From the UHGV virus genome UHGV-0224961: a stretch of 39,860 nucleotides of DNA; one strand, given 5' to 3'. Within the stretch, counting starts at the first letter, position 1. The number at the start of each line of letters is the position of its first letter. Below are positions 12,844-32,660 of this stretch, piece by piece. The notes beneath the pieces were generated by a model, which was not told the origin of the DNA, did no database searches, and was given only the letters and a program-made list of their open reading frames with translations. The DNA comes from a virus. Position numbers and translations under genes: made by a program.

Positions 12844-13174
12844 ATCAGCAGCAGAGCGCAAAGCCGCTCAGAGAGCCAGACAAGCTGCATCTGGTGTGCG
12901 TAAGCTGGAAATTGTGCTTGATGCTCAGGAAATTGAAATGCTGGAGCGTAACTGTGCCACGCGTCGCCCCGGGCGTGCGCCTTACGAATTTGGTGAGTAT
13001 ATAGCGTTACTGATCCGCCAGGATGATGCACGCGTGCGCGGGCGTATAAAATCGATCAGCAGAAAATGTTGCGGTAAGTGCGGCGAGAGAGTTCCAGTTA
13101 ATTCATGCCCGTGTAATGGTGACTCGCAATGCTGGATGACTAAAGGCTGGCATGAAACGAAATTAATAGTGTGA
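12836..13174 (+). CDS. Hypothetical protein with C-terminal Cys cluster; candidate regulator
   Basis: 112 aa; basic N-terminus; C-terminal CCGKCG...CPC...C; stop codon lies inside the GTGACATGTCAC palindrome. Confidence 0.5.
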   Translation: MAKSAAERKAAQRARQAASGVRKLEIVLDAQEIEMLERNCATRRPGRAPYEFGEYIALLIRQDDARVRGRIKSISRKCCGKCGERVPVNSCPCNGDSQCWMTKGWHETKLIV

Positions 13175-13182
13175 CATGTCAC
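13171..13182. promoter_or_regulatory. Perfect 12-bp palindrome GTGACATGTCAC at an operon end
   Basis: Same palindrome at 32649-32660 and a variant at 15436-15447. Confidence 0.45.
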
Positions 13183-13223
13183 GAGTAGATTATGCATGAT
13201 GAATTTGATGGGTTTTGAATACT

Positions 13224-13249
13224 GCCGCCAACTATGGCGGCTTTATTTT
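13224..13249 (+). terminator. Rho-independent terminator before the terminase operon
   Basis: gccgcca-acta-tggcggc followed by tttatttt. Confidence 0.65.
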
Positions 13250-13260
13250 GCATGGTACTA

Positions 13261-13293
13261 TTACCACAACGGTAACTATTACCACGGTGGTTA
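13261..13293. promoter_or_regulatory. Operator-like TTACC-ACAAC-GGTAA (13261-13275) plus imperfect TTACC-ACGGT-GGTTA (13279-13293) immediately upstream of terS
   Basis: Same palindrome family as at the repressor gene. Confidence 0.5.
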
Positions 13294-13295
13294 TG

Positions 13296-13889
13296 ATGCC
13301 TGCTGAACCTAAAACCTATAAACGCAAATCAACGCAATTTAAGCCACTAACAGCAATGCAGGAGGCTTATTGCCAGTCATACATCAAAACGCCTGAAAAC
13401 CAGACTCAGGCAGCGATTAACGCAGGATTCTCCCCAAATACAGCGGCAGTTAAAGCCAGTGTCATGATGCGCGATGAACGCATTCAAAAACGGATTGCCG
13501 AGTTGATGGAGGAGCGCAACAAACGAATGCGCGTCAGTGCTGATTACGTTCTCATGCGCCTGGTGGAGATCGACCAGATGGACGTGATAGACATCCTCAA
13601 CGACGATGGGAGCCTTAAACCAATCCGCGAGTGGCCGAAAATCTGGCGCACTACGCTTAGCGGCTTTGATCTGTCATCGACCATCATGAACATGAACGAG
13701 GATTCGATAGAGACAATCCTCAAAAAAATTAAATGGCCTGACAAGGTGAAGAACCTTGAGCTGATTGGTAAGCACGTCGATGTCAATGCATTCAAAGAAC
13801 GCCTGGATGTTAATGTGAATGTGACAATTGCTGATCGCATAGCGGCAGCCAGGAAGAGACTGAAAGAACGTCAGGATGGCAATCAGTGA
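13296..13889 (+). CDS. Terminase small subunit
   Basis: Directly upstream of and overlapping TerL; start taken at ATG 13293/13296 (the track ORF begins at a TTG at 13215 that runs through the operator and terminator). Confidence 0.65.
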   Translation: MPAEPKTYKRKSTQFKPLTAMQEAYCQSYIKTPENQTQAAINAGFSPNTAAVKASVMMRDERIQKRIAELMEERNKRMRVSADYVLMRLVEIDQMDVIDILNDDGSLKPIREWPKIWRTTLSGFDLSSTIMNMNEDSIETILKKIKWPDKVKNLELIGKHVDVNAFKERLDVNVNVTIADRIAAARKRLKERQDGNQ

Positions 13890-15361
13890 CAGATGCAGCG
13901 TTATCTCCTGAAGAGCAGTTGATCGAGGATATTGCAGGGTTCACTCACGATCCGCTTGGCTATGCCCTCTATGCGTTCCCGTGGGGGGAAGAGGGGACTG
14001 AATTAGCACATGCCACCGGTCCACGTCAGTGGCAGGCTGATGCGTTCAGAGAGATACGTGATCACCTGCAGAATCCAGAGACGCGATATCAGCCGCTTAT
14101 GCTGGCACGTGCTTCTGGTCACGGTATTGGTAAATCCGCATTCATCTCAATGCTGATCAACTGGGGCATGTCCACTTGCGAGGATTGTAAGGTCGTGGTG
14201 ACCGCCAACACCGACAACCAGCTACGAACGAAGACCTGGCCGGAAATTATCAAGTGGTCGAACCTTGCTATCACGAAAGACTGGTTTACCTGTACCGCTA
14301 CCGCGATGTACAGCAATGACCCTGGGCACGACAAGCGGTGGCGAGCTGACGCAATCCCTTGGTCTGAGCACAACACTGAGGCATTCGCCGGACTACACAA
14401 CGAGCGCAAACGCATCATCGTGGTATTCGATGAGGCGTCGAACATTGCGGATCTGGTGTGGGAAGTTGCCGAGGGTGCGCTAACGGACGAAGACACTGAG
14501 ATTATCTGGGTGGCGTTCGGAAACCCGACGCGTAATACCGGACGTTTCCGCGAATGTTTCCGCAAATATAAACACCGCTGGAAAACTGCGCAGATTGACA
14601 GCCGGACGGTGGAAGGCACTAACAAACAGCAGTTGCAGAAATGGGTTGATGACTACGGGGAAGACAGCGACTTCGTTAAAATCCGTGTGCGCGGCATATT
14701 CCCGGATGCATCTGAATTGCAGTTTATCCCTACCGGACTTACTGACGAGGCAATGAAACGGGTGGTCACCGCTGCGCAGGTGGCACATGCTCCGGTGATA
14801 ATCGGCGTTGACCCGGCATACTCCGGCGTTGATGACGCTGTGATATACCTGCGGCAGGGGCTGCACAGTAAGGTGCTGTGGACTGGCAACAAGACCACTG
14901 ACGATCTGATTATGGCGAAGCGTATCGCTGACTTTGAAGACCAGTACCAGGCTGACGCGGTGTTCATCGACTTCGGTTACGGTACCGGGCTGAAGTCAAT
15001 CGGTGACGGTTGGGGGCGTACATGGCAACTTGTTCCGTTCGGTGGCGCGTCTACTGACCCGCAGATGCTAAACAAGCGCGGGGAGATGTTCAACAGCTGC
15101 AAAACGTGGCTGAAGCTGGGCGGGATGCTGGATGACCAGGAAACAGCGGACGACCTGTCGGCGGCAGAGTACAAAGTTCGCGTGGACGGTAAAATCGTTA
15201 TCGAACCGAAGGAAGATATCAAGGAGCGGCTTGGGCGTTCGCCGGGTAAAGGCGATGCGCTACTGCTGACGTTTGCTTTCCCTGTGTCTAAGCGCCTGCG
15301 AATTCCCGGGCAGCAGAACCAGCAAGGTAAGGCCATCACAGATTACGATCCCTATGCTTAA
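13886..15361 (+). CDS. Terminase large subunit
   Basis: 491 aa; Walker A-like ARASGHGIGKS; C-terminal nuclease-like domain with acidic residues; GTG start overlapping the terS stop. Confidence 0.9.
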   Translation: MTDAALSPEEQLIEDIAGFTHDPLGYALYAFPWGEEGTELAHATGPRQWQADAFREIRDHLQNPETRYQPLMLARASGHGIGKSAFISMLINWGMSTCEDCKVVVTANTDNQLRTKTWPEIIKWSNLAITKDWFTCTATAMYSNDPGHDKRWRADAIPWSEHNTEAFAGLHNERKRIIVVFDEASNIADLVWEVAEGALTDEDTEIIWVAFGNPTRNTGRFRECFRKYKHRWKTAQIDSRTVEGTNKQQLQKWVDDYGEDSDFVKIRVRGIFPDASELQFIPTGLTDEAMKRVVTAAQVAHAPVIIGVDPAYSGVDDAVIYLRQGLHSKVLWTGNKTTDDLIMAKRIADFEDQYQADAVFIDFGYGTGLKSIGDGWGRTWQLVPFGGASTDPQMLNKRGEMFNSCKTWLKLGGMLDDQETADDLSAAEYKVRVDGKIVIEPKEDIKERLGRSPGKGDALLLTFAFPVSKRLRIPGQQNQQGKAITDYDPYA

Positions 15362-15411
15362 TCCGCTGGTGGGGATAATGTCGTTGATATCCTCTGATGA
15401 GGATAAAACAA

Positions 15412-15447
15412 AGCCAGCTTATCGGCTGGCTGTTTGTGACGTGTCAC
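15412..15447 (+). terminator. Hairpin (agccagc/gctggct) followed by palindrome GTGACGTGTCAC downstream of TerL
   Basis: Weak T-run; may act as a partial terminator or protein-binding site. Confidence 0.3.
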
Positions 15448-15488
15448 GACATTAAAATCCATCGAATTCGTATTTCATGATTCACACC

Positions 15489-15514
15489 TTAAAAAAATGC
15501 CCGGCGAACCGGGC
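15489..15514 (-). terminator. Rho-independent terminator on the minus strand
   Basis: gcccgg-cgaa-ccgggc with a 7-A run on plus (U-run on minus). Confidence 0.55.
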
Positions 15515-15591
15515 GAACTGGAAGCAATGAGTTATGCCTTCCGTGGCTGTACTGGTTTACAGCATGAAGTCATCGCAATGGCGTCCTGCTG

Positions 15592-15634
15592 TAAAAAGGG
15601 CGGTGATAGTCCTTCAAGGGAAACCATCACCGCC
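15592..15634 (-). terminator. Minus-strand terminator-like hairpin about 45 nt 3' of the tRNA
   Basis: 9-bp stem ggcggtgat/atcaccgcc followed on minus by UUUUU. Confidence 0.5.
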
Positions 15635-15677
15635 AAGCCCCTGGAACTTCTGGCATCACGGTCCTTAGGCGTGATTC

Positions 15678-15754
15678 TGGCGTGGCATGCAGGATTCGAA
15701 CCTGCGACCAACCGCTTAGAAGGCGGTTGCTCTGTCCAACTGAGCTAATGCCAC
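15678..15754 (-). tRNA. tRNA-Arg (anticodon UCU), phage-encoded
   Basis: Reverse complement folds as a canonical 77-nt cloverleaf: acceptor GTGGCAT/ATGCCAC, D-stem GCTC/GAGC, anticodon stem ACCGC/GCGGT, loop CTTCTAA, T-stem GCAGG/CCTGC, TTCGAAT loop, discriminator G, CCA encoded. Confidence 0.85.
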
Positions 15755-16076
15755 AACGCTGAGAGCACTTAGCCTGTTAAGGCGCCACACTTTGTCGCGG
15801 CTCCATAAATGCTCTCATCGTTGTACCCTCGTCTCTTCCGAGGCGTCACACCGAATCGCCGGGATGGTGAATCCCCGTGCGCGGAATAAAACCGCTCGAC
15901 TTGCACATTCCGGCTACCTGGTTCGTTTGCCCGAGCAAGGGAGGGTGCCCCTTAAACGTATCCAGACCGCTATCGTCGCATGTGCCATACGCCGTACTGC
16001 TCAAAATAAAAGCTCACTCCACCTGTTCAATTTAACGACAAGCCAGTCAGGTTAGTAACTGGAATGAACTCTTTGG

Positions 16077-16143
16077 TTACCTGAAAGGTAATAATTCTCG
16101 CGTTAAATGTCAACTATCTACGATAAATAAATCATATGTGGTT
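16077..16143. promoter_or_regulatory. Perfect operator TTACC-TGAAA-GGTAA (16077-16091) plus TATCTA-N14-TATGTGGTT motif (16115-16143) upstream of the head operon
   Basis: A minus-strand TTGACA -35-like hexamer at 16108-16113 points leftward toward the tRNA. Confidence 0.5.
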
Positions 16144-16181
16144 AAATTGGTAATAATTTAATTGCGTACGGAGTCATTGAT

Positions 16182-16388
16182 ATGTGCATGGGTAGCTCAC
16201 CATCAGTGCCTGCAACACCAGAAGTTCAGGCAGCACCACAGGAGCAGGATGCCGCCGTTGTTGATGCCCGCGACGAAGAAACACGTCGCCGTCGCGCTGC
16301 TGCTGGTCGTAGTTCTACGCTGCTTACCGGTTCTCAGGGCGACACATCAACCGCTAATACCAGCGGTAAAACGCTGCTTGGTCAGTAA
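16182..16388 (+). CDS. Small hypothetical head-operon protein (68 aa)
   Basis: Preferred over the overlapping 16162 frame because the 12 nt upstream (cggagtcattga) are identical to those upstream of the portal start. Confidence 0.5.
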   Translation: MCMGSSPSVPATPEVQAAPQEQDAAVVDARDEETRRRRAAAGRSSTLLTGSQGDTSTANTSGKTLLGQ

Positions 16389-16402
16389 CCGGAGTCATTG
16401 AA

Positions 16403-18082
16403 ATGGCGGAAACAACTAAAGAGCGATTGAACAAACAGTTCGCACAACTTGAAAGCGAGCGTCAGTCGTTCGAGCCGCACTGGCGCGAGTTGAGTGATTA
16501 CATCAACCCGCGTGGTTCCCGCTTTCTGACTTCTGAGGTCAACCGTAACGATCGACGCAATACACGCATTATTGATTCTACCGGTACTATGGCGGCGCGC
16601 ACTCTCGCCAGCGGCATGATGTCAGGCATCACAAGCCCCGCGCGTCCGTGGTTTCGCCTGGCTACGCCAGATCCTGAAATGATGGATTATGGCCCTGTTA
16701 AGTTGTGGCTTGAGGCGGTGCAGAACCGCATGAACGATATGTTCAATAAGTCGAATCTCTACCAGTCTCTTCCGCAGTTATACGGAAGCCTCGGCACATA
16801 CAGCACTGGTGCAATGGCGGTGCTGGAGGATGACGAGGACATCATTCGCACAATGCCATTCCCGATAGGCAGTTACTACCTGGCTAACTCACCTCGTGGC
16901 AGTGTGGACACCTGTTTTCGCAAGTTCTCTATGACTGTTCGTCAGCTTGTTCAGGAGTTCGGGCTAAATAACGTCAGCGAATCCGTAAAAAGCATGTGGG
17001 AAAGCGGCACCTACGAGAAGTGGATTGAAGTGATGCATTCGGTTTACCCGAACATTGACCGCGATACATCGAAGCTGGATAGCAAGAACAAGCCATTCAA
17101 ATCGGTTTATTACGAGGTTGGTGGCGATAACGACAAGTTGTTGCGTGAGTCCGGATTCGATGAGTTTCCAATTATGGCTCCGCGCTGGGAAGTTAACGGC
17201 GAAGATGTTTATGGATCATCATGCCCGGGTATGCTGGCGCTTGGACCTGTTAAGGCATTGCAGCTTCTCCAGAAGCGCAAGTCGCAGTTGATTGATAAAG
17301 CCACCAATCCGCCGATGGTTGCTCCGACTTCCCTCAAGAATCAGCGCGCCTCCCTTCTTCCTGGCGACATCACGTATATCGATCAGATTACTGGTCAGGA
17401 TGGTTTCAGGCCTGCTTATCTGGTTAACCCCAGTACAGCAGATCTGGTAGCAGACATTCAGGACACCCGCCAAATCATTAACAGCGCCTACTTTGTCGAT
17501 CTGTTCATGATGTTGCAGAACATCAATACCCGCTCGATGCCTGTTGAAGCGGTGATCGAAATGAAAGAAGAAAAACTTCTGATGTTGGGGCCGGTTCTGG
17601 AGCGTCTGAACGACGAATGTCTTAATCCTCTCATTGACCGCGCTTTCTCGATGATGGTGCGTAAAAACATGCTGCCGCCACCGCCTGACGCGATGGAAGG
17701 TATGCCCCTGAAGGTCGAATACATTTCTGTCATGGCTCAGGCGCAGAAGTCTATCGGCCTGTCCAGTCTGGCGTCCACGGTTAACTTCATTGGTCAACTT
17801 GCGCAAGCGAAACCAGAAGCTCTCGACAAACTCAACGTTGATCAGGCGATCGATGCATTCGCTGATATGTCCGGAGTGTCTCCAACCGTCATTGTTCCGC
17901 AGGAACAGGTTGAGCAGGCTCGCCAGCAACGGGCACAGCAACAACAGCAGCAACAAATGATGGCGATGGGGATGGCGGCGGCACAGGGTGCCAAGACGCT
18001 AAGCGAAGCTAAAACTTCGGATCCGAGTGTTTTGTCAGCTATGGCGAATGCAGTTAGTGGTCAGGGTGGGCAATCACAATGA
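16403..18082 (+). CDS. Portal protein
   Basis: 559 aa, follows TerL, precedes scaffold and capsid; Q-rich C-terminal tail. Confidence 0.8.
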   Translation: MAETTKERLNKQFAQLESERQSFEPHWRELSDYINPRGSRFLTSEVNRNDRRNTRIIDSTGTMAARTLASGMMSGITSPARPWFRLATPDPEMMDYGPVKLWLEAVQNRMNDMFNKSNLYQSLPQLYGSLGTYSTGAMAVLEDDEDIIRTMPFPIGSYYLANSPRGSVDTCFRKFSMTVRQLVQEFGLNNVSESVKSMWESGTYEKWIEVMHSVYPNIDRDTSKLDSKNKPFKSVYYEVGGDNDKLLRESGFDEFPIMAPRWEVNGEDVYGSSCPGMLALGPVKALQLLQKRKSQLIDKATNPPMVAPTSLKNQRASLLPGDITYIDQITGQDGFRPAYLVNPSTADLVADIQDTRQIINSAYFVDLFMMLQNINTRSMPVEAVIEMKEEKLLMLGPVLERLNDECLNPLIDRAFSMMVRKNMLPPPPDAMEGMPLKVEYISVMAQAQKSIGLSSLASTVNFIGQLAQAKPEALDKLNVDQAIDAFADMSGVSPTVIVPQEQVEQARQQRAQQQQQQQMMAMGMAAAQGAKTLSEAKTSDPSVLSAMANAVSGQGGQSQ

Positions 18083-18375
18083 CAGATTACGAAGATGATC
18101 AACTGAAAGAAGAAAACGCCCGTAAGCAACGTGACATGGCACAGCGTGAAATTGATGACATTCGCTTTGTCATGAGCAGTGAACAGGGGCGTCGCGTTGT
18201 CTGGTCGGTGCTGGAGAAAGGCCGTGTGTTTTCCGCTATCTCACCGATGGACGCTATGGCAATGGCATTTAATGAGGGGCAACGCAATCTGGCGCTGGAA
18301 CTGTTTCAGCGCGTTATGGCGCATTGCCCTGAACAGTATTTGAAGATGGCCAAAGAGGCCAGTGAACAGGAGTGA
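18079..18375 (+). CDS. Hypothetical head-assembly protein
   Basis: 98 aa, overlapping starts and stops with portal and scaffold. Confidence 0.5.
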   Translation: MTDYEDDQLKEENARKQRDMAQREIDDIRFVMSSEQGRRVVWSVLEKGRVFSAISPMDAMAMAFNEGQRNLALELFQRVMAHCPEQYLKMAKEASEQE

Positions 18376-18377
18376 TC

Positions 18378-19073
18378 ATGAATTTATTTGAGCGTTTGCT
18401 GTATCGCCGTCTTTGCAATGAGCAACCAGTCGATGGTGGAGCAGCTCCGGCTGCGTCAGAACCGTCAGCGCCTGCAGGTGATACCCCTGCTCCAGTTGGT
18501 GATCCATCACAACAGGAAGGTGATAAGCCACAACCTGTTGCTGATGGCGATAAACCTGCTGATGACAAAAAGCCTGAAAACGATAAGCAGGATGAAAAAA
18601 AGGGCGGCGATAAACCAGAGGGTGCGCCTGAGAAGTACGAGTTTCAGGCTGCCGAAGGCGTAGAGCTGGATACAGAAGCGTTGAAGGAATTCGAGCCGGT
18701 GGCGCGAGAACTTAACCTGACCAACGAGCAAGCGCAAAAGCTGGTTGATGCTTATCCGAAGATTCTGGCAGGTGTTCAGCAGCGCCAGGCAGAAGCCTGG
18801 CAGAAAACAACCGAGCAGTGGGCTGCGGATGTAAAAGCTGACAAAGAAATCGGTGGCGACAAGTTGATTTCTAACCTTAGCGCCGCACAGCGTGCGCTTG
18901 ACCAGTTCGGGACACCTGAACTCAAAGAATATCTGAACACCACCGGGCTGGGTAATCACCCTGATCTGGTCAAAACGTTCGTGAAAATCGGAAAGGCGAT
19001 GTCTGAAGATGGCATGGTCACCGGTGGTAATGAAGGCCAGCGTAGTGCGGCCGAAGTGCTCTATGGCAAATAA
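18378..19073 (+). CDS. Scaffolding protein candidate
   Basis: Acidic, low-complexity Pro/Asp/Lys-rich N-terminal half, helical C-terminal half; located between portal and major capsid. Confidence 0.6.
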   Translation: MNLFERLLYRRLCNEQPVDGGAAPAASEPSAPAGDTPAPVGDPSQQEGDKPQPVADGDKPADDKKPENDKQDEKKGGDKPEGAPEKYEFQAAEGVELDTEALKEFEPVARELNLTNEQAQKLVDAYPKILAGVQQRQAEAWQKTTEQWAADVKADKEIGGDKLISNLSAAQRALDQFGTPELKEYLNTTGLGNHPDLVKTFVKIGKAMSEDGMVTGGNEGQRSAAEVLYGK

Positions 19074-19081
19074 GAGAGGAA

Positions 19082-20074
19082 ATGACAATGGCTGTTAAAG
19101 GCTTAACTGCGCTAACGCTGGTTGACTGGGGTAAGCGCGTCGATCCAAACGGGAAAGTCGATAAGATTATCGAGCTTCTCGGTCAAACTAACCCGATCCT
19201 TCAGGATATGCCTTTTGTCGAAGGGAACCTTCCTACCGGACACCGAACCACCATTCGTTCTGGTTTACCTTCAGCTACCTGGCGTTTGCTGAACTATGGC
19301 GTACAGCCAAGCAAATCAACCACGGTGCAGGTCACCGATTACGTTGGCATGCTGGAAACCTATGCTGAAGTCGATAAGTCACTGGCTGATCTGAACGGCA
19401 ATACCGCCGAATTCCGCCTGTCTGAAGACCGCGCATTTATTGAAGCGATGAATCAGGCGATGGCGCAGACGCTGTTTTACGGTGATTCCAGCGTTAACCC
19501 TCAGCAGTTTATGGGACTGTCCTCCCGCTATTCCAGCCTGTCTGCGGGTAATGCTCAGAACATCATTGATGCTGGTGGCACGGGTACAGATAACACTTCA
19601 ATCTGGTTAGTGGTGTGGGGCGAAAACACCGTGCATGGCATCTTCCCGAAAGGGCAGAAGGCTGGCATCCAGATGGAAGATAAAGGCCAGGTGACACTGG
19701 AAGATGCTAATGGCGGCAAGTACGAAGGTTATCGTACCCATTATAAGTGGGACAACGGGCTGACATTGCGTGACTGGCGCTATGTTGTTCGCATTGCAAA
19801 CATCGATGTCAGCAATCTTTCAGAACCTTCCTCTGCCGCAAATATTGCGAAGTTGATGGTTAAAGCACTGCATCGCATTCCAAACCGTGGCATGGGCCGC
19901 CCGGTGTTCTACATGAACCGCACTGTAGGCCAGGCTCTTGATCTGCAGTCTCTGGAGAAAACATCTCTGGCTATCAGCGTAAAAGAGACTGAAGGCGAGT
20001 GGTGGACTTCATTCCGTGGTGTACCAATCCGTGAAACTGATGCGCTTCTGGAAACAGAAGCCCGCGTGGTGTAA
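19082..20074 (+). CDS. Major capsid protein
   Basis: 330 aa, position after scaffold; size matches epsilon15-type capsid proteins. Confidence 0.8.
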   Translation: MTMAVKGLTALTLVDWGKRVDPNGKVDKIIELLGQTNPILQDMPFVEGNLPTGHRTTIRSGLPSATWRLLNYGVQPSKSTTVQVTDYVGMLETYAEVDKSLADLNGNTAEFRLSEDRAFIEAMNQAMAQTLFYGDSSVNPQQFMGLSSRYSSLSAGNAQNIIDAGGTGTDNTSIWLVVWGENTVHGIFPKGQKAGIQMEDKGQVTLEDANGGKYEGYRTHYKWDNGLTLRDWRYVVRIANIDVSNLSEPSSAANIAKLMVKALHRIPNRGMGRPVFYMNRTVGQALDLQSLEKTSLAISVKETEGEWWTSFRGVPIRETDALLETEARVV

Positions 20075-20125
20075 CGCCTGTTATTAACCTGTGGGTCGTA
20101 ACAGACCCACTAATGGAGAAAGAAG

Positions 20126-20563
20126 ATGATCACCGACAAACTGTTGATGTTCTCCGAAGCTCAGGCGGTTACGAATACCGCGGCTTCTACTGACGTAATC
20201 GATCTCGGTCCAATTGATGGAAACCGTCGCGATATCGGCGTGGGTTATCCGCTTGAGTTTTGGGTGCTGGTTAACGAAGCCGCCACGGCAAGTGGTGAGG
20301 CAACTGTAAACATCCAGTTGCAGACGAGTGAGAATAACAGCTCATGGTCCACTATTTATGATAGTGGCGCACTGGCAAAGGCTACCCTGACAGCAGGTAA
20401 ACGAGTTGTTTCTGCAAAGGTGCCTGCCGGTGTTCAGCGATATCTGCGTGTTAACTACTCCGTCGCAACTGGCCCACTAACGGCCGGCAAATTCACTGCG
20501 GGTATCAGTCTGGATGTTGATGCCAATACGCCGTACCCGATCCGCTCAAAAGTAACTGGTTAA
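20126..20563 (+). CDS. Virion-associated protein (capsid decoration candidate)
   Basis: 145 aa, beta-rich composition, immediately after the capsid gene. Confidence 0.5.
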   Translation: MITDKLLMFSEAQAVTNTAASTDVIDLGPIDGNRRDIGVGYPLEFWVLVNEAATASGEATVNIQLQTSENNSSWSTIYDSGALAKATLTAGKRVVSAKVPAGVQRYLRVNYSVATGPLTAGKFTAGISLDVDANTPYPIRSKVTG

Positions 20564-20564
20564 G

Positions 20565-20909
20565 GTGATATCGATGTCAGGTGAGAAACCAAGATACCGC
20601 GTTCTGCGCCTCTCTCATATCCATAACACACTGTGGCCGGAGGGGGCAGAAATCGAATACGAAGGTGAGCCTGGTAGCGCACTGGAACCTGTTAACGATG
20701 CAGCCAGACAGGCAAAAGCAAAGGTAGCAGGAAAGGTGTCTATGGCAGCAACCAGCACCAAAATCATCAACGATGTGTCAGATGATGGTGAACTGGATAA
20801 GCTCCGTGAAGAGTACGAATTGCTCTTTAACGAGAAGCCACACCATAACGCTAAAGCCGAAACGCTCCGCGAGAAGATCGCAGATAAGCGTAAAGAACTG
20901 GGCGTGTAA
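20565..20909 (+). CDS. Hypothetical structural-region protein
   Basis: 114 aa. Confidence 0.5.
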   Translation: MISMSGEKPRYRVLRLSHIHNTLWPEGAEIEYEGEPGSALEPVNDAARQAKAKVAGKVSMAATSTKIINDVSDDGELDKLREEYELLFNEKPHHNAKAETLREKIADKRKELGV

Positions 20910-24359: not shown

Positions 24360-24823
24360 TGATCGATGTTCGAATTATTCCCGCCACCGAAGAGCATCTT
24401 CAGATGATTTTGCCGGATGTTCGTCAGGCTGATATTGACGAACTGTATGCGGTATCGCTGATGACTACCGAAGATGCGCTGCGTGTTGGTCTTCGCACTG
24501 CGACTATGGCCTGGTCAGGGTTCGCGAACGGAGAACTGGTAACCATGTTTGGTGTATCTCCGGCGTCAATGATCGGTGGCAATGGTACACCCTGGCTGGT
24601 CGGAACCAGCCGTATTGAAAAATATCAGAAGACATTTCTTCGCCACTGCCGACCTGTATTGCAGCAGATGCTGGCAGTTTATCCGCGCCTGGAAAACTAC
24701 GTCGACGAGCGAAACCATGTTGCCAAAGCATGGCTGCACTGGCTTGGATTCAGGCTTGAAGAAGCCGCGCCTTATGGTGCTCTTGGTCTTAATTTCCACA
24801 GATTTCACATGGAGAGAAAATAA
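24359..24823 (+). CDS. Internal virion protein (gp13-like position)
   Basis: 154 aa, ATGA-coupled. Confidence 0.45.
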   Translation: MIDVRIIPATEEHLQMILPDVRQADIDELYAVSLMTTEDALRVGLRTATMAWSGFANGELVTMFGVSPASMIGGNGTPWLVGTSRIEKYQKTFLRHCRPVLQQMLAVYPRLENYVDERNHVAKAWLHWLGFRLEEAAPYGALGLNFHRFHMERK

Positions 24824-25368
24824 TGTGCGATCCGGTTATTGCTGGTGGCGCAATGCTCGCCATGAGTGGCATTCAGGCATACACCCAGTACCAACAGGGA
24901 AAGTATGCCTCGAAGGTTGCAGAAGCGAACGCAGATATAGCCACTGCTCAGGCAAATGATGCAATAAACAGAGGTAACGCTGAAGCTGAGCAACGGCGCA
25001 GAGAGACCCGACAGCGGCTTGGTACACAAGCGGCGACAATGGGGGCGACCGGCGCCGATTTATCTACCGGTAACGCGCTGGATATATTTGGCGACACTGC
25101 CCAGTTTGGCGCTCTTGATTCGCTGACGACGGTGAATAACGCGCAACGCGAGGCTTACGGTTATCAGGTTCAGGCTGCCAACTATAAAGCAGAAGCCAGT
25201 TCAGCCCGTAAACAGGGGAATGTGGGAGCAGCAACAACATTGCTCACTGCGCCTCTGAAGGCATACGGTGCGTACCAGATGTTTGGTGGGACGTGGAGTC
25301 CGTTTACTCAAAGCACCCCTGCGCCAATCGGGGCAGCAGCAGGAACCAGATTACCCGGAGGATTATAA
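24823..25368 (+). CDS. Internal virion / ejection protein (gp14-like position)
   Basis: 181 aa, Ala/Gln-rich. Confidence 0.45.
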   Translation: MCDPVIAGGAMLAMSGIQAYTQYQQGKYASKVAEANADIATAQANDAINRGNAEAEQRRRETRQRLGTQAATMGATGADLSTGNALDIFGDTAQFGALDSLTTVNNAQREAYGYQVQAANYKAEASSARKQGNVGAATTLLTAPLKAYGAYQMFGGTWSPFTQSTPAPIGAAAGTRLPGGL

Positions 25369-27881
25369 TGCCAGTCGTACCAACAGTATCCGGACGCCAG
25401 GTTGAGAGCCGTGGAGTTCAGTCAGCAGGCTTGCAGACGTTTTCTCAGCCAGGTATTGGTGATGCTTTTGTTCGGGCAGGGACAGAGGCAATTGATGTTT
25501 TGGGGCAGGCAAAACAGCGTGCCAATATCGCTCTGGCTCAGGAGGCATCTCTTAACCTCAGTCAGATAAGCAGTGATCTGCTGAATAACCCTGAAACAGG
25601 TTTGCTTAACCTGAAAGGGAAAAATGCTATTGGAAAAGGCCATGAGTATACGCAGCAGTTTGATGCTCAGGTCGAACAACTGGCTATGTCGCTGCCGGAT
25701 GAACAGGCTCGTAATGCTTTCATGCAGCAGGCGCAGCAGCAGCGCATTCAGTTCACTACGCAGGCCGGGCGGCACGAGATAGGGCAAATTAATGCCTACG
25801 AAGAAGGTCAGTTTCAGGCGACGCTGCTGAACAATGGTAAAAATGCCGCAGCATTATATGGCGACAATGCCGCATACGTATTGGCTAATAAGCAAACTTT
25901 CCAGCAAATTGAGGAGTACGGTGCTGCACATGGCTGGAGCGACGAGCAAATACAGGCCAAGAAAATCGAGTTTAAAGAGAAGGTTGCTGATGCAGCATTG
26001 TCCCAGTGGTCGGCAAACAATGCGACCGCATTCATCCAAAGTAATGGCGAGTTAAGTGATACTGCTGCTGGAGCTCGCCGTGCTGTAACAGATAGTGGCT
26101 CTTCCGAGCGTGTCCGTGGCATACGCAACAATAACCCCGGAAATCTCGAATACAGCAAAACTAATCCGTGGGTAGGCCAGACCGGTGATGATGGTAGATT
26201 TGCTAAATTCGAAACACCTGAACACGGGATTCGTGCATTAGGGCGGAACCTGATGTCGTATCAGCGGCAGGGTATTGATACCGTCAGCGAGATAATTAAT
26301 CGCTGGGCACCGCCTACTGATAAAAATGACACTATGTCGTATATCAAAGCAGTGTGCGAACAACTTGGCGTTTCTGCTGATGAGCCTCTCGATGCATCAA
26401 ATCCTGATACCCTGAAGGCGCTTTGTGCAGCCATTATCCATCATGAGAACGGTAGCCAGCCATACAGTGATCAGCAGTTAACTGCTGGTGTCAGTGCAGC
26501 ACTTGGTTTATCAACAATTCCAACCAACACCAAACGCTATACCGGTAATGCAGCATTCGATGCGGCATCTCCTGAGGCTCAGGCAAGTTTTATGCGGCAG
26601 GCGGATCAACTGCGTCGGCAGCAGCAGGCTGAATATAAAACGATGATTGACAGCCAGGTTCGCGATGCGACGGCTGCGTATATGCGTGGCGTTGAATTTC
26701 CTAACCCACCTGGTGAGGCTGATTTTATTGCAGCTTATGGAGTCAGAGAAGGAAACCTGCGATATACCGAGTTTAAGAATACGCAGATCGCCGGACAGTA
26801 TATAGGCTCTTTCCGCAACATGCCGACAAGCAGCATTACAGCATATGTTGAGCAATTACGCCCGGATACTGGTGAGACAGGGGAGGGTTATGCGGCTCGC
26901 GCAGCTCTTTATGACAACGTTGTTTCGGCTGCAAATCAGGTGATAAAGCAGCGGCAGTCTGATCCTGTGCAGTTCTCTCTTGCCTCTGGACAGGCAAAGC
27001 CTATCGACATGAGCAATAAGGATAACTTTGGACAGAGCGTTGCCTTGCGTGCCGCTCAGGTCAGTGACCTTGCTAAGTCATATGGCACTCCACTGACGTT
27101 CTTTTCCAAAGACGAGGCCAATCAGATCGGTGTTTTTTTTCGTGATGCTCCAGTTTCCCAACAGGCAGCATATCTCGATACCATCAGGCAGAGCACTGGT
27201 GGTGGGCAGGTGTATATGTCAGCACTACAGCAGATCAGTGCCAACGCTCCATCTGCTGCCGTTGCCGGGATACTGATGGATAAGCCTGGTGGTATTTTGG
27301 CAGAAAAAAACTGGTTTAATCCGGATGTTTCCGTGTCTCCTGAAACCGCTGCGCAGACAATTCTTGCTGGCGCGGCGGCTCGTAAAGGTACTGATGATGC
27401 GAAAGGTATTCCGATGCCTAAAGATGCTGATCTTCGCCTTGAGTTTTCTGACATGGTGAAGGATGCATTTGCTGGTGACGCTCAGGGGGCATCAATGGCA
27501 TACGAGATCGCAAAGGATTATTACGCTGGTGTGATGGCGAAAAAAGGCGTGGTATCAGGCGAAATTGACAATGATGTATGGAAACAGGCTGTTAACGTAG
27601 CTACAGGTGGCGTGCATGACTATAACGGAATGGGGAATGTCCTTTTGCCGTGGGGAATGTCTGCAGAGCAATTCGATAAGCAGGTTAATCAGGCTTGGAA
27701 TGAACAAGTTGTCGGCTCTGGGATAAAAACACCGCCTGGTCAGTATGGTTTGCAAAGTTACGGCGATAGTCAGTACCTGGTGAAACTTGGTACTGGTTAT
27801 CTGCTGAAAGATGATGGTTCTCCCGTTGTTCTTAATCTGACACAGAAGCGTCAGAGATTCTCCGGAGATATTCCGCAATGA
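25368..27881 (+). CDS. Internal core / ejection protein (gp15-like position)
   Basis: 837 aa from ATG 25368 (TAATG overlap with the previous gene). Confidence 0.6.
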   Translation: MPVVPTVSGRQVESRGVQSAGLQTFSQPGIGDAFVRAGTEAIDVLGQAKQRANIALAQEASLNLSQISSDLLNNPETGLLNLKGKNAIGKGHEYTQQFDAQVEQLAMSLPDEQARNAFMQQAQQQRIQFTTQAGRHEIGQINAYEEGQFQATLLNNGKNAAALYGDNAAYVLANKQTFQQIEEYGAAHGWSDEQIQAKKIEFKEKVADAALSQWSANNATAFIQSNGELSDTAAGARRAVTDSGSSERVRGIRNNNPGNLEYSKTNPWVGQTGDDGRFAKFETPEHGIRALGRNLMSYQRQGIDTVSEIINRWAPPTDKNDTMSYIKAVCEQLGVSADEPLDASNPDTLKALCAAIIHHENGSQPYSDQQLTAGVSAALGLSTIPTNTKRYTGNAAFDAASPEAQASFMRQADQLRRQQQAEYKTMIDSQVRDATAAYMRGVEFPNPPGEADFIAAYGVREGNLRYTEFKNTQIAGQYIGSFRNMPTSSITAYVEQLRPDTGETGEGYAARAALYDNVVSAANQVIKQRQSDPVQFSLASGQAKPIDMSNKDNFGQSVALRAAQVSDLAKSYGTPLTFFSKDEANQIGVFFRDAPVSQQAAYLDTIRQSTGGGQVYMSALQQISANAPSAAVAGILMDKPGGILAEKNWFNPDVSVSPETAAQTILAGAAARKGTDDAKGIPMPKDADLRLEFSDMVKDAFAGDAQGASMAYEIAKDYYAGVMAKKGVVSGEIDNDVWKQAVNVATGGVHDYNGMGNVLLPWGMSAEQFDKQVNQAWNEQVVGSGIKTPPGQYGLQSYGDSQYLVKLGTGYLLKDDGSPVVLNLTQKRQRFSGDIPQ

Positions 27882-29680
27882 GTTACTTTGGCCTTAATCC
27901 AGTAAACCAGAATCAGCAGCTTGACGAAGCAGCATCAAATCCAGCTGGCTTTAACAGCGATGTTGGTTTTTTCGACAATGCTGTAGGAGCGGCATTGTCT
28001 GGTTTGTACTCAGGGCTGGTGGCAAAGCCAGATCAGTTGCTATGGGCAGGGATGGATAAAATCGTATCCCCGATTGCTCAGTTTGTTAACGAAAACACCT
28101 CGCTCAATGATACTTCAGTTTCATACATTGCCGAGCAGAGAAAACTAGCAGAGCAGCAGGTTAAGCGGCTGACGCCTGATGCCGCGACAACTGGAACCGC
28201 TGGGCAGGTTCTTTATGGGTTGTTCGATATGGGCGGGCAGGCTGTTGTCGGTACAACGCTCGGTGGTTCTGTCGGAGGTGCAGCAGCGGTAACTTCGCTA
28301 CAGGGTTTTTCTGAGTTTGAACGGCTGACAGCACAGGGTGTTGATTTCAGGACGGCGCAGGAAGCGGGATTAGTGCAGGGCATTACTGCTGGTGCCGGAA
28401 CGCTGATCCCTATGAGCCTCGGGTTACGTGCTGGTGGTGCGCTGGCGGAAGGTGTGGCGGCTCAGCTTGCGCGGACGGGTGAGAGTTCAGTGCGACGCGC
28501 CGCAGCAACAGCAGTACGTGCAACGCCAGATATTGCCTATGCCGCAGGTACAAATATTGCGTTCGGTATGGCACAGCGTGGGCTTACTGCAAAAACACTT
28601 CGTGATGGTGGCTATAGCGAAATGGCTAACCAGTATGATGTGTTGGATCGACAGGCAATTGCTATTGATGCTGTTCTTGGGGTGGCGTTTGGTGGTGTCG
28701 GCAGATTTATTAACTCTCGCGGCGAGTCTACAAACGCACCAAATTTTTCACCAGTTGATATCGATGCTGCACTGGCGGCGAATGCCGCTCATCATGCTGA
28801 AATTGATATTGCGCCCGGCGTGCCGATCAACGTGCTTTCGCGCAATTCTCACATTCAGGCTCTGCGAAAAGCTATGTCTGATGTTAGCCAGGGGAGACCT
28901 GTAGACGTTGCCAGCATTGTTGAGTCTGCATCTTTCAGTGAAATTCCTTGGCGCAAGAGTCTGCTGTCTCAGGCAGTTAATGAGGCTCTGTCATCTGTAG
29001 ATGATGGAGTAACGGCGCGCGCTATAGAAAATCGGTTGCTTGAAGAACAGGCCGCGCAGCTTTTGCCGCGTGGAGATAGACAGGTTTACCAGTCTGAAAT
29101 CGCTAATAGCCAACGAATTATTGAAAATCTCACTGAACAGCGTGCACAAATTCTTGCAGAAGAGCCAACCGGTAGCGGTAAAGCTTTGTCTCGTGCTCGA
29201 TCAGATAAACAGGCCAGACTTCGCGATATTGATCAACGAATCCGGCAGGCACAAGAACGCCTGGAATTTTCCCGTAACGCGTTGGCACCGCACGAGCCTG
29301 GCGGTCAGTTTTTTGAAGCTCGAGCAGAACTGGCTCGGAGACAGCAGGCAGAAAGTGAACTTAATGCTCAGGCTGTTTCATTCTATAAAACAGCAGAGGT
29401 CAGGACGCCAGACGAAGTAGCTCCTTTTGAGCCTGATAAAATATTGCAACAGGCAGAACAAAAAATGATGTCAGATCAGGCAGGAGATATTGATCTGCGC
29501 ATAGCTGAAGACTCGCTGCTTGAATCACCTGACATGATAATCACCGTGCTGGATGATGATGGTAATCCACAATCGCGCAGTGCGCGTGAAGTACTGGATG
29601 AAGCGAACAGGGAAAGTGAGCAGGTAATACAGGATTCCAGCCTGTTTGATGTTGCTGTGGCGTGTTTCTTGAGAGGTTAA
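27878..29680 (+). CDS. Internal core / ejection protein
   Basis: 600 aa; Ala/Gly-rich N-terminal half. Confidence 0.55.
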   Translation: MSYFGLNPVNQNQQLDEAASNPAGFNSDVGFFDNAVGAALSGLYSGLVAKPDQLLWAGMDKIVSPIAQFVNENTSLNDTSVSYIAEQRKLAEQQVKRLTPDAATTGTAGQVLYGLFDMGGQAVVGTTLGGSVGGAAAVTSLQGFSEFERLTAQGVDFRTAQEAGLVQGITAGAGTLIPMSLGLRAGGALAEGVAAQLARTGESSVRRAAATAVRATPDIAYAAGTNIAFGMAQRGLTAKTLRDGGYSEMANQYDVLDRQAIAIDAVLGVAFGGVGRFINSRGESTNAPNFSPVDIDAALAANAAHHAEIDIAPGVPINVLSRNSHIQALRKAMSDVSQGRPVDVASIVESASFSEIPWRKSLLSQAVNEALSSVDDGVTARAIENRLLEEQAAQLLPRGDRQVYQSEIANSQRIIENLTEQRAQILAEEPTGSGKALSRARSDKQARLRDIDQRIRQAQERLEFSRNALAPHEPGGQFFEARAELARRQQAESELNAQAVSFYKTAEVRTPDEVAPFEPDKILQQAEQKMMSDQAGDIDLRIAEDSLLESPDMIITVLDDDGNPQSRSAREVLDEANRESEQVIQDSSLFDVAVACFLRG

Positions 29681-29685
29681 ATTAA

Positions 29686-32160
29686 ATGAGACAGGAATGT
29701 ATACAAGCGGTCCAGCAGGCGGCGCAGCGCACGTTAACGGCGCGAGAAATACAGAACATTGAAGACCGCATTTATCGAAATATGCGCTCCATTGCTCGTG
29801 ATGACCCGATGTCGTGGCGACAACTTTCCGAATCAGAACGGTTGTATCGTGCAGCACAATTGGCATCTGAAGAATTACAGCGAGAAGCGGCATTAAAGAA
29901 ACGTCGTGTGGCCCTCACTATAGCCGCACGTCAGAGATTGGATAAATTTATCAATAGCTATCAAGGGGCTGATGGGAAACTTGGCGCTCTTAACCGTACT
30001 ATTGCTTTTAATGCAGACGGTAAATCGAATTTCCTCTCTGTTGAATCCAGAACAAAAGCCACCCGTGATTATGCATTGAGTCAATTGCAGGAGGCATTCG
30101 AAGCAGTTGATCCTCGCTTTTTTGGTCTGTTTGAAGATGAAGCGGGCGTACGTGACCTGGTATATGAAATGCGGGGGCAAAATACTGGCAATGCTAAAGC
30201 AAGAAAAGGTGCTAAGGCGTGGAGAGAAGTTACAGAGCTGCTGCGCCGCAGGTTTAATGATGCTGGTGGGGACATTGGCTATCTCGAAAACTGGGGGATC
30301 CCTCAACATCATTCTATGGAAAAGGTTGGGGCGGTATCAAAAGATAAATGGGTTAGCGATGTTATAGGTAAGCTGGATCGCAAATATTATACCCGAGCCG
30401 ATGGACAACTGATGAACGATGCCGAGTTGTCTGCATTTCTTGGAGAGGCTTATAACACGATCGCTACTGGTGGGCTGAATAAGCTTACTGATACCGGAAT
30501 GCGAATTTCCGGCGCACGTGCTAACCGTGGTAATGCATCACGACAGATACATTTCAAAGATGCAGATTCCTATCTGCAATATCAGCAACTTTATGGCGAT
30601 CGCTCTCTATGGGAAATCATGGTCGGTCACCTTGAAGGTATCAGTAAAGATATTGCACTGGTGGAAACATATGGCCCAAACCCCGATCATGTTTTCCGCT
30701 CTCTTCTTGATCAGGTGAAGGCAGAAACGGCAACAGCTAACCCGAGTAAAACCGGTAAAGTCGAGCGGCTGGCGAACAACACAGAGAATCTGTACAACTT
30801 TATTTCCGGAAAGACACAGCCTGTAGCGAATCCGCACATCGCGCGATGGTCTGACAATATCCGCAACTGGCTGGTTGCCAGCAGACTCGGATCCGCGTTG
30901 CTGTCATCGTTCTCTGATCTTGGAACCATGTATCTGTCTGCGAAGGTTACCAACCTTCCAATGAACCAGTTATTCCGCAACCAGCTTGAAGCTATGGACC
31001 CAACGAACCGTACAGAACTTGCGCGGGCGCGCCGCGCTGGTCTGGCGATGGAATCTCTACTTGGCAGCGTTAACCGCTGGGCGATGGATAATATGGGGCC
31101 GTCTGTGTCTCGTTGGGCTGCAACGGCGGTAATGCGTGCCAGTGGGCTTACAGCATGGTCAGATGCGCACAAGCGCGCCTATGGCGTAACCATGATGGGA
31201 AGCCTGGGAGAAGTAGTGTCACGGACACCAGACCTTCGTAGCCTCGATGATTCTGATTTTCGTATCCTGAAAAGCAAAGGGATTACTGACACAGACTGGA
31301 GCGTATGGAAGCTGGCGCAACAGGAGGACTGGGGGAACGGCAATAATACGATGCTGACACCGGAAAGCATTATGCGTATCCCTGATTCAGCAGTTAAACA
31401 TCTTGGTGAGCCTGAACGCGTGAAATTTGAGGCAATGCGTAAACTGCTCGGTGCCGTAACTGAAGAAGTTGATATGGCTGTTATTACACCGGGAGCACGT
31501 GAGCAACTGATAACCGGTTCTGGTATTCAGCGTGGAACATGGAAAGGTGAATTAACGAGAAGTGTTTTCCTGTTTAAATCGTTCCCTATCTCGGTGGTTA
31601 TGCGTCACTGGTCACGCGCTATGGGTATGCCGTCTGCTGGTGGGCGTGCGGCATATATTGCGACGTTTATTGCCAGTACGACCATTCTTGGCGCTTTGTC
31701 GCAGCAACTTAACGACCTTGCGTCTGGTCGTAATCCTCGCGAGATGACAGGAGAAGATGCTGCTAAATTTTGGCTTGGTGCTCTACTGAAAGGTGGTGGT
31801 CTTGGCCTTTACGGTGACTTTTTATTGTCAGATCACACTAGGTACGGAAGCGGCGCGCTGGCGTCGATGCTTGGCCCGGTAGCTGGTCTGGTTGATGACG
31901 TAGTGAAGATTGCTCAGGGCATACCGTTAAATGCTGTGGAAGGGAAGAGTGAGCAGACTGGTGGTGATCTGGTGAAGCTGGGGAAAGGTTTGATGCCAGG
32001 TGCGAATCTCTGGTACTTAAAGGCGGCTCTCGATCATATGATCTTTAACCAGATGCAGGAGTATTTTTCACCAGGCTATTTGCGTAAAATGGAGCAACGT
32101 TCGAAGAAAGAGTTTAACCAGACATACTGGTGGCGACCTCAGGATGTCACTCCGCAATAA
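29686..32160 (+). CDS. Internal core / ejection protein (gp16-like position)
   Basis: 824 aa; last large gene before the tailspike region. Confidence 0.55.
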   Translation: MRQECIQAVQQAAQRTLTAREIQNIEDRIYRNMRSIARDDPMSWRQLSESERLYRAAQLASEELQREAALKKRRVALTIAARQRLDKFINSYQGADGKLGALNRTIAFNADGKSNFLSVESRTKATRDYALSQLQEAFEAVDPRFFGLFEDEAGVRDLVYEMRGQNTGNAKARKGAKAWREVTELLRRRFNDAGGDIGYLENWGIPQHHSMEKVGAVSKDKWVSDVIGKLDRKYYTRADGQLMNDAELSAFLGEAYNTIATGGLNKLTDTGMRISGARANRGNASRQIHFKDADSYLQYQQLYGDRSLWEIMVGHLEGISKDIALVETYGPNPDHVFRSLLDQVKAETATANPSKTGKVERLANNTENLYNFISGKTQPVANPHIARWSDNIRNWLVASRLGSALLSSFSDLGTMYLSAKVTNLPMNQLFRNQLEAMDPTNRTELARARRAGLAMESLLGSVNRWAMDNMGPSVSRWAATAVMRASGLTAWSDAHKRAYGVTMMGSLGEVVSRTPDLRSLDDSDFRILKSKGITDTDWSVWKLAQQEDWGNGNNTMLTPESIMRIPDSAVKHLGEPERVKFEAMRKLLGAVTEEVDMAVITPGAREQLITGSGIQRGTWKGELTRSVFLFKSFPISVVMRHWSRAMGMPSAGGRAAYIATFIASTTILGALSQQLNDLASGRNPREMTGEDAAKFWLGALLKGGGLGLYGDFLLSDHTRYGSGALASMLGPVAGLVDDVVKIAQGIPLNAVEGKSEQTGGDLVKLGKGLMPGANLWYLKAALDHMIFNQMQEYFSPGYLRKMEQRSKKEFNQTYWWRPQDVTPQ

Positions 32161-32169
32161 GGAAGTGTT

Positions 32170-32343
32170 GTGTTTTTAATTATTTTGAGTGTGATAATTT
32201 CTGGTGGGTTGTTATTTATTGACCGCTACAAATATTTTCTTAACCCTCAGACTCAAGCTATTTGCTGGTTCATCTTTGTTGTGCAGGGAATAGTTCTTGT
32301 TGCAAGCCTTATTGAGGGGAGGCCTCTGATTTTTACTGGGTAA
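32170..32343 (+). CDS. Small hydrophobic protein (57 aa; GTG start)
   Basis: Hand-translated VFLIILSVIISGGLLFIDRYKYFLNPQTQAICWFIFVVQGIVLVASLIEGRPLIFTG; GGAAG RBS; below the ORF-track cutoff. Confidence 0.3.
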   Translation: MFLIILSVIISGGLLFIDRYKYFLNPQTQAICWFIFVVQGIVLVASLIEGRPLIFTG

Positions 32344-32355
32344 ATAGGTGACTAC

Positions 32356-32652
32356 ATGCAAGCTATAGGATTCATTGTTTATATCGTCGTTGGTCTTTTT
32401 CAGTTGGCAGCAATTATGGCTGGGCTTGAATCATGGTGGGGATTGCACTGGATAATTGCAGCCCCCATTGCTTTCATCGTGAGCTATATTCCATTTGTTG
32501 GAGCGATTGTTGGTATGGTTGGCGCTGTGGATGTATGGCGGTGGGAGTGGTGGCAGGCTGGCCTTCTCTTCTTTGGTGGGATCATCTTTGCTATTGTCTG
32601 CGGTGGAATGTCATCATTTTTCGAATGGCTATCATTCAGAAAAAGAGCGTGA
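32356..32652 (+). CDS. Small integral membrane protein (about 3 TM segments)
   Basis: 98 aa, very hydrophobic; stop codon lies inside GTGACATGTCAC. Confidence 0.5.
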   Translation: MQAIGFIVYIVVGLFQLAAIMAGLESWWGLHWIIAAPIAFIVSYIPFVGAIVGMVGAVDVWRWEWWQAGLLFFGGIIFAIVCGGMSSFFEWLSFRKRA

Positions 32653-32660
32653 CATGTCAC
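32649..32660. promoter_or_regulatory. Perfect 12-bp palindrome GTGACATGTCAC
   Basis: Identical to 13171-13182; followed by the hairpin at 32661-32678. Confidence 0.45.

Follow-up and report, generated by a model that had tools for sequence, protein, structure and literature searches.

The 39,860-nucleotide viral genome UHGV-0224961 (hereafter the window, the whole stretch of DNA analyzed) is the complete or near-complete genome of a temperate podovirus of the epsilon15/phiV10 type (genus Uetakevirus). It is 96-97% identical to the Escherichia phages HEMP4, ZX5, phiv142-3, phiV10 and TL-2011b, and about 80% identical to Salmonella phage epsilon15, Enterobacter phage Tyrion and Klebsiella relatives. 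Uetakevirus integrates at guaA (PMC9782041). Three copies of a 12-bp palindrome, GTGAC-RT-GTCAC, lie at operon junctions of the window, the first of them over the stop codon of a small gene. The gene and the three sites are as follows:

12836-13174, plus strand: gene for a 112-residue protein of the epsilon15 gp49/N15 gp46 family (PHROG 536, "transcriptional regulator"), the proposed binder of the palindrome
13171-13182, palindromic, both strands: site 1, GTGACATGTCAC, with the TGA stop (13172-13174) of the gp49-family gene inside
15436-15447, palindromic, both strands: site 2, GTGACGTGTCAC, centre GT, after the bidirectional terminator hairpin behind TerL
32649-32660, palindromic, both strands: site 3, GTGACATGTCAC, with a TGA stop (32650-32652) inside, abutting the terminator hairpin t3

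The gp49-family gene is the last of the early-right operon and lies just after a NinX homologue. Downstream of site 1, a terminator hairpin (t1) follows after 41 nucleotides (nt) and the ATG of TerS (13296) after 114 nt. Site 2 begins 75 nt past the end of the TerL open reading frame (ORF) at 15361; in the relatives it has an AT centre and is followed by a minus-strand accessory gene. The ORF that ends in site 3 (32356-32652) is a small membrane-protein gene that closes the virion-gene operon. In both perfect copies the TGA stop (ORFs 12836-13174 and 32356-32652) occupies palindrome positions 2-4. Matches to GTGAC-RT-GTCAC appear in 0 of 100 dinucleotide-preserving shuffles, and the chance expectation for the more general GTGAC-N2-GTCAC, based on base composition, is approximately 0.036 in the window. 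A preliminary description of the window had reported three non-random copies at these coordinates, a stop codon at an equal position in the two perfect ones and the variant copy 75 nt after TerL; the match positions, the shuffles and the ORF ends agree with it on each count.

The palindrome is real, non-random and functional. The generalized motif (also written YGTGACNNGTCACR) was counted in 12 non-redundant genomes totaling 424 kb, where GTGAC-N2-GTCAC occurs 31 times against 0.4 expected from composition. Half-site spacings of 0, 1 and 3-10 yield 0-2 copies each, and the everted arrangement at spacing 2 yields none. P2 and lambda, both without a gp49-family gene, have no copy at all. Every one of the 31 copies is preceded by a pyrimidine and followed by a purine, which extends the unit to Y-GTGAC-NN-GTCAC-R (14 bp). 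The central dinucleotide varies by lineage (AT, GT, CT, GC, TG, AC, CC, CG) and is mostly uniform within one. The 12-mer GTGACATGTCAC was not found in the literature searched, which did not cover the epsilon15 genome paper (Kropinski 2007); the paper on ZX5, a 97%-identical phage, has the repressor, anti-repressor and integrase as its only subjects.

The half-sites are also those of matS, the site of MatP, which reads GTGACRNYGTCAC (PMC6907758, Table 2). Spacing 3, that of matS, is represented by a single copy in the 12 genomes. One of the two spacing-3 copies across all loci retrieved, in Vibrio phage K303 (L011, 19491-19503), reads GTGACACCGTCAC and fits the true matS consensus; it coexists with three spacing-2 sites.

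Within the genus, the sites keep their places. All 12 nucleotides are intact at the three matching junctions (gp49 stop, after TerL, end of the virion operon) of epsilon15, SPN1S and Tyrion, where the palindrome is unchanged while its flanks are only about 80% identical. The three junctions are also kept in phiV10, whose record begins and ends within the gp49-stop copy, and Klebsiella phage BUCT711 retains two of the three positions plus two other copies. Syntenic conservation in related phages, the check that the preliminary description had proposed, is therefore found. Site 1 is at the same place in BUCT711 and TL-2011b as well. Site 3 persists in phiV10, epsilon15, Tyrion, SPN1S and BUCT711 even though unrelated small genes have taken the place of the one before it. 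Site 1 is retained in 75 of 80 near-identical IMG/VR relatives, and approximately 51 of the 80 have a second copy within 10 kb downstream of it; the exceptions carry single-base changes or a replaced segment.

Sites 2 and 3 coincide with insertion and mosaic breakpoints. Directly after site 2 (15448-15500 compared with L001 2274-2660), phiV10 (p03), epsilon15 (gp50), TL-2011b (gp23) and Tyrion carry different minus-strand accessory genes that the window lacks. A variable region also lies behind site 3, with Bro-N and anti-repressor genes in phiV10 and Tyrion. The palindrome could be a passive linker at mosaic boundaries, kept through recombination between phages and not bound by anything, as the loss of homology to relatives at sites 2 and 3 and the variable minus-strand genes right beside them would suggest. 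This is very unlikely, however, because the half-sites persist where the protein is only 30-40% identical and the centre drifts, enrichment is confined to one spacing, and one copy is always tied to the same gene.

Two further palindrome-like sequences occur in the window. A one-mismatch copy, GTGACATGGCAC, lies at 18131-18142 within the coding ORF 18079-18375; it is present in the E. coli relatives phiV10 and TL-2011b, is absent from epsilon15 and is probably incidental. At the Rz stop (38314-38325) the window reads ATAGCATGGCAT, a relic of a fourth site, and decayed copies are found at the same stop in epsilon15 (GTGACATGGCAT; L004 26618) and SPN1S (GTGACATGTCAT; L007 26722). From these sequences, an operon-end copy at the Rz stop appears to be decaying and to have been lost in the window.

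Outside the genus, the site accompanies the gene. The family falls into 153 clusters at 50% identity, and the module is found in no fewer than seven phage lineages. Searches with tblastn and profiles place PHROG 536 homologues in N15-like, P2/186-like, Pantoea, Vibrio, Pseudoalteromonas and Pseudomonas phages (phage 186 itself is absent among the tblastn matches listed), with hosts mostly in Enterobacterales, Vibrio, Aeromonas and Pseudoalteromonas. The GenBank record of epsilon15 states that gp49 resembles N15 gp46. The homologues of Pantoea myophage AH07 (57% identity), Yersinia P2-like phage vB_YenM_56.17 and N15 (gp46, 35% identity) all have their TGA stop inside GTGAC-NN-GTCAC, with the centres CT, GC and TG, respectively. 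The stop lies inside the site in 49/49 N15-like loci and in 46/50 P2/186-like loci, the site standing 10 bp past the stop in the other four. The same arrangement is seen in Vibrio phage 10N.237, a Pseudomonas lurida prophage, a Pseudoalteromonas prophage and two further 186-like prophage loci. The neighboring genes change by lineage (NinX, replication gene A, gp45.1, an HNH gene, integrase), so that the one neighbor in common is the gp49-family gene. The gene and its site are inherited together as one module, with one copy at, and usually over, the stop of the gene and one to three more at other junctions. Recoding of the stop codon through a UGA-C context was considered and rejected, as sites also occur without stop overlap (site 2; L186-L189).

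Most of these genomes have more than one copy, among them N15 (3), Vibrio phage K303 (3), the Pseudomonas prophage (3 in a 9.9-kb contig) and a V. parahaemolyticus prophage (3). One N15 site (L010, 33237) lies inside repA, about 620 nt from its start, and is kept in all N15-like loci whose sequence reaches that far; another (L010, 28550) sits between gene 33 and a terminator. These two positions hint at a role in the replication control of the plasmid prophage. AH07 has a perfect GTGACATGTCAC (L008, 34430-34441) within the gene of a Q-like antiterminator; in translation it forms part of a zinc-finger motif of the type CxxCxGxG (CVTCHG). The P2/186-like loci (L141-L190, and L009 8500-8520) have a conserved extra half-site about 30 bp downstream of the full site (GTGACGYG.. 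or ..CGCGTCAC), and its sequence suggests a second, weaker binding position. In the Vibrio phages, four of six sites end 19-20 nt before a start codon, that of TerS and those of two other genes (L011 35942, L204 13141 and 451, L011 21342). One Vibrio site falls in the HNH-TerS interval, the usual place of HK97-like cos sites. A pac or cos signal was nevertheless rejected: one copy does lie just upstream of TerS in the genus and in Vibrio phages, but of the three copies most are distant from TerS, and the N15 cos has none.

The match to matS raises the alternative that host MatP, and not a phage protein, binds the sites. In its favor, both the half-sites and the purine/pyrimidine flanking of the centre agree with matS. 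We regard this as highly improbable. Spacing 2 is strictly kept (31 copies, with a single one at spacing 3); with one central base pair fewer, the half-sites would be displaced relative to each other by some 36 degrees and 3.4 Å, a change that normally prevents a dimer from binding; and the site tracks the phage gene, the Pseudomonas prophage included. Pseudomonas is not known to have MatP or MukBEF. The presence of the module in a Pseudomonas prophage therefore argues that the phage system is independent of host MatP, and the module would be self-contained.

In the alignment of the gp49 family, a conserved basic helix (..ERK..QR.R..) stands at the N-terminus, followed by an extended segment, a pair of helices of which the second is long, and a C-terminal C-x2-C...C...C cluster. 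In the window protein, the corresponding Cys/His cluster consists of C79, C82, C91, C93, C99 and H106. AlphaFold models, predicted as monomers only, have pLDDT values of 64 and 75 (residues 30-75 of the better model score about 87-91), and they contain the strand-helix-helix arrangement that defines the ribbon-helix-helix (RHH) superfamily. The predicted RHH fold of the family is solid, and a symmetric site is compatible with an RHH dimer that would insert its two-stranded sheet into the major groove. A phmmer search of the single protein against the PDB gives nothing relevant, and no sequence match to the Q-lambda, Q21 or Q82 families was found in Pfam or the PDB. The long helix and a CxxCG..LP...C segment align weakly with TraR and YbiI (hmmsearch E ~0.02; hhalign E 1.9e-4, probability 48%); Pfam zf-dskA_traR is not among the matches listed. 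This DksA/TraR-like zinc segment is a lead towards a possible RNA polymerase contact and nothing more. A proteome of a telomere-phage lysogen includes a "gp46", possibly the homologue of this family, among nine detected phage proteins (PMC12042878).

We consider it probable that the three palindromes are recognition sites (Y-GTGAC-NN-GTCAC-R) of the phage's own small DNA-binding protein, the product of gene 12836-13174. A dimer would read the two inverted GTGAC half-sites through the RHH core and the preceding basic helix, much as MatP reads matS. The preliminary description had suggested a second protein-binding site distinct from the repressor operators, and this is supported by the difference in sequence, the syntenic conservation and the tracking of a gene for a DNA-binding protein across unrelated phages. 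That description had missed two main points, the association with the gene alongside and how closely the site matches matS.

Several observations weigh against this assignment. The binder is proposed from co-occurrence and predicted fold. Foldseek against the PDB returns no match for the family model, the hhalign comparison of the family with E. coli MatP (a query identical in sequence to chain 4d8j_B) is not significant, and with the poorer model MatP ranks only 23rd. In the Vibrio K303 group the nearest site lies about 230 bp downstream of the homologue and not at its stop. There is no site at the stop in Pseudoalteromonas ruthenica L203 or in two metagenomic loci (L194, L196), and the copy in an Aeromonas phage is degenerate. 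Single sites are dispensable: site 2 is not intact in about a third of the close relatives, and site 1 has a point mutation in a few. Finally, the positions of the sites differ by lineage (adjacent to terminators, upstream of start codons, inside repA) and indicate no single mechanism.

The surroundings of the sites bear on what a bound protein would do. Three terminators accompany them:

13224-13248, plus strand: terminator t1, hairpin 13224-13241 GCCGCCAACTATGGCGGC with a T-run, after site 1 and before the operator-bearing region upstream of TerS
15412-15435, both strands: terminator t2, an A-run, hairpin 15412-15431 AGCCAGCTTATCGGCTGGCT and a T-run, directly before site 2
32661-32686, plus strand: terminator t3, hairpin 32661-32678 AGGCCGCTCTTGCGGCCT with a T-rich tail, directly after site 3

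A hairpin beside each copy, as the preliminary description had it, is indeed present, 41 nt after site 1, 4 nt before site 2 and abutting site 3. In Uetakevirus, the sites mark the 3' ends of the early, terminase and virion operons, all within 41 nt of a hairpin, and sites 2 and 3 lie between convergent genes. The counterpart of t2 in Salmonella relatives scores as a terminator on the minus strand only (L007), and in epsilon15, Tyrion and SPN1S the plus-strand hairpin behind TerL lacks a proper T-run and is directly followed by the site. The association with terminators holds mainly for Uetakevirus and for P2/186-like phages. It does not extend to the Vibrio sites that precede start codons or to two of the N15 sites, one 12 nt before an ATG and one inside repA. 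The suggestion of the preliminary description that the palindrome is a terminator-associated binding site or a factor-dependent termination element is not supported.

The palindrome is not itself an intrinsic terminator, as it folds alone to only -1.2 kcal/mol and the true hairpins are separate and adjacent. A function in RNA, as a small hairpin within the terminators or as a processing or translation signal, might be suspected, since the sites are transcribed at operon ends beside hairpins and the Vibrio copies lie about 7 nt upstream of Shine-Dalgarno sequences. It is extremely improbable: the stem has only 4 bp, the palindrome stays invariant beside terminator stems that have undergone compensatory changes, and the combination of Y/R flanks, strict half-sites and a free centre is typical of a protein-DNA site. 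Rfam identifies only the tRNA and no RNA family at the palindrome.

A roadblock or insulator comes nearest to the termination role that the preliminary description had in mind: the bound protein would stop RNA polymerase at operon ends, reinforce partly weak terminators and separate convergent units. The operon-end positions close to hairpins, the convergent genes at sites 2 and 3 and the poor plus-strand hairpins behind TerL are in line with this, and a symmetric site would block both directions. The Vibrio site 19-20 nt before the TerS start leaves no room for a promoter, though, and a strong block there would shut off the terminase. In N15, one copy is 12 nt before the ATG of the next gene, inside an operon. 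Moreover, sites 1 and 3 lie upstream of their hairpins, so that polymerase would stall before the terminator is transcribed. As an explanation of the sites in its own right, a roadblock is rather unlikely.

The operators of the repressor are a separate set. Repressor-operator-like TTACC-N5-GGTAA sequences occur at 5158, 5220, 5932, 5980, 8239, 8301, 13261, 13279, 16077 and 33019; they are annotated as operators in the epsilon15 GenBank record and are unlike the palindrome. Because the immunity-region operators (5158-5980) are unrelated to it in sequence, the palindrome was ruled out as a repressor operator or L5-type stoperator. The preliminary description had also placed the copies upstream of operator-bearing promoter regions. 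This is only loosely true: operators 13261/13279 lie 79 nt downstream of site 1, and the next ones after sites 2 and 3 (16077 and 33019) are about 630 and 360 nt away, with a minus-strand tRNA gene and a minus-strand gene in between, respectively. Operators are found at the immunity region and ahead of the terminase, head and tailspike operons, and from their positions a CI-type repressor seems to control the late operons directly, in a P1-like multi-operator layout.

A possible promoter-like arrangement is seen at site 1. The window has GTGACA-18-CATGAT (9/12 matches), and the Salmonella and Enterobacter relatives have GTGACA-17-TAAATT; no promoter was found at the N15 or Vibrio phage sites. 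The palindrome was rejected as a general -35 element of bidirectional promoters, since only site 1 of the Salmonella and Enterobacter relatives has a plausible -10; sites 2 and 3 have none, nor do the sites of N15 and the Vibrio phages.

Two neighboring loci deserve mention. Beyond site 2, the tRNA-Arg(TCT) gene (15678-15754, minus strand) overlaps the plus-strand ORF 15497-15748 (PHROG 4647), and the two are not easily both genuine genes. Beyond site 3, the minus-strand gene 32685-32945, a weak anti-repressor match (PHROG 450), has a perfect LexA-box-like sequence, CTGTATATTTATACAG (32964-32979), immediately upstream. The arrangement suggests that the gene encodes an anti-repressor under SOS control, like the one that the related phage ZX5 is reported to have in ORF4.

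Returning to the gp49-family protein as the binder, it would most probably modulate the passage of RNA polymerase at operon junctions. One such action is a read-through license, with the factor loading at the site and letting RNA polymerase pass the next terminator. In its favor, the gene stands where lambdoid phages have Q, between NinX and the late genes. A terminator follows downstream of sites 1 and 3, of the P2-like site and of site C in N15, and the Vibrio sites stand just upstream of TerS without room for a promoter. Against a need for read-through, each late operon in the window has its own repressor-controlled upstream region.

Another possibility is that transcription is not the target, and that the protein is a MatP-like DNA organizer, which would act through its dispersed sites by bridging or condensing phage DNA or by shielding it from host SMC complexes. 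The identical half-sites and the RHH core with its preceding basic helix would suit this, as would the few dispersed sites per genome without promoter linkage, the exact bracketing of the terminase operon by sites 1 and 2, and the predominance of Enterobacterales, Vibrio, Aeromonas and Pseudoalteromonas among the hosts. The protein, however, lacks the N-terminal bundle and C-terminal coiled coil that are the interaction domains of MatP, and the module also resides in a Pseudomonas prophage, a genus not known to have MatP or MukBEF. Taken as an explanation of the whole, this too is rather improbable.

Granted binding, a read-through license is possible if doubtful, the roadblock and the architectural role are each a more tentative proposition, and some other role is unlikely. 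We lean slightly towards read-through over the roadblock, with bridging a close third; the three are nearly equal. A bolder proposal, drawn by analogy and in our view unlikely, is that gp49/gp46 might represent a new class of transcription elongation factors loaded at DNA sites, with the RHH domain parked on the 12-bp sites and the TraR-like zinc domain engaging polymerase to license or abort terminator passage, or else a phage counterpart of MatP that would organize the chromosome or exclude SMC complexes.

A protein annotated only as hypothetical or "transcriptional regulator" in epsilon15, phiV10, N15, phiKO2 and P2/186-like phages and prophages gains a concrete candidate DNA target of 14 bp with fixed half-sites and spacing. 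The module is the nearest mobile-element version of MatP/matS yet seen; it could shed light on the evolution of this RHH mode of recognition and on whether a difference in spacing is enough to keep phage and host specificities apart. Should the protein act on RNA polymerase at the junctions, this would be a new way of controlling late transcription in phages. In genome annotation, the motif can also serve to locate operon ends and the places where accessory genes insert in these prophages.

Among known systems, RHH regulators such as Arc, Mnt, CopG, MetJ, PutA, toxin-antitoxin antitoxins and TraM/TraY usually bind operators in their own promoters, whereas the phage protein has one site where its own gene ends and the others at further operon junctions, and it bears an added zinc-type C-terminal domain. 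The stoperators of mycobacteriophage L5 (Brown et al. 1997) are reportedly some 30 asymmetric sites to which the immunity repressor binds. Like the phage palindromes, they are short sites in intergenic junctions, some over stop codons, with a proposed action on elongating polymerase. The palindromes differ in being symmetric and few, and the repressor here has its own distinct operators.

The lambdoid Q proteins offer a parallel in gene position, as the gp49-family gene is the last early gene, after the NinX homologue and just before the late genes. The site of the gp49 gene has a terminator within about 50 nt downstream, and in the Salmonella and Enterobacter relatives it supplies a -35-like GTGACA 17 bp from TAAATT. 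Unlike Q, the family has no similarity to Q families, the -10 is poor in the window and there are several sites per genome; gp49 homologues also coexist with a Q-like protein (N15, AH07) or with Ogr (P2-like). The long helix and Cys segment of the phage protein weakly resemble DksA and TraR, which bind the secondary channel of RNA polymerase.

MatP/matS is the closest system. MatP binds matS with a Kd of about 8 nM (PMC6907758) and contacts it via helix alpha4 and strand beta1 (PMC8669397). The two systems share the inverted GTGAC...GTCAC half-sites with purine/pyrimidine beside the centre, a few dispersed sites that are not promoter operators, and an RHH protein with a basic helix directly before the strand, a helix that in MatP also enters the major groove. 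The phage site has one central base fewer (12 bp with a 2-bp centre, against 13 bp with a 3-bp centre), and the 112-residue phage protein has a Cys/His cluster in place of the four-helix bundle and C-terminal coiled coil, with no protein similarity at the sequence level. The phage sites are on phage genomes and not in the host terminus macrodomain, one is fused to the gene's own stop codon, and the module is also found in a Pseudomonas prophage. That an RHH protein and identical half-sites should coincide by chance is unlikely, and the comparison is no more than suggestive of a specific relationship between the gp49 family and MatP.

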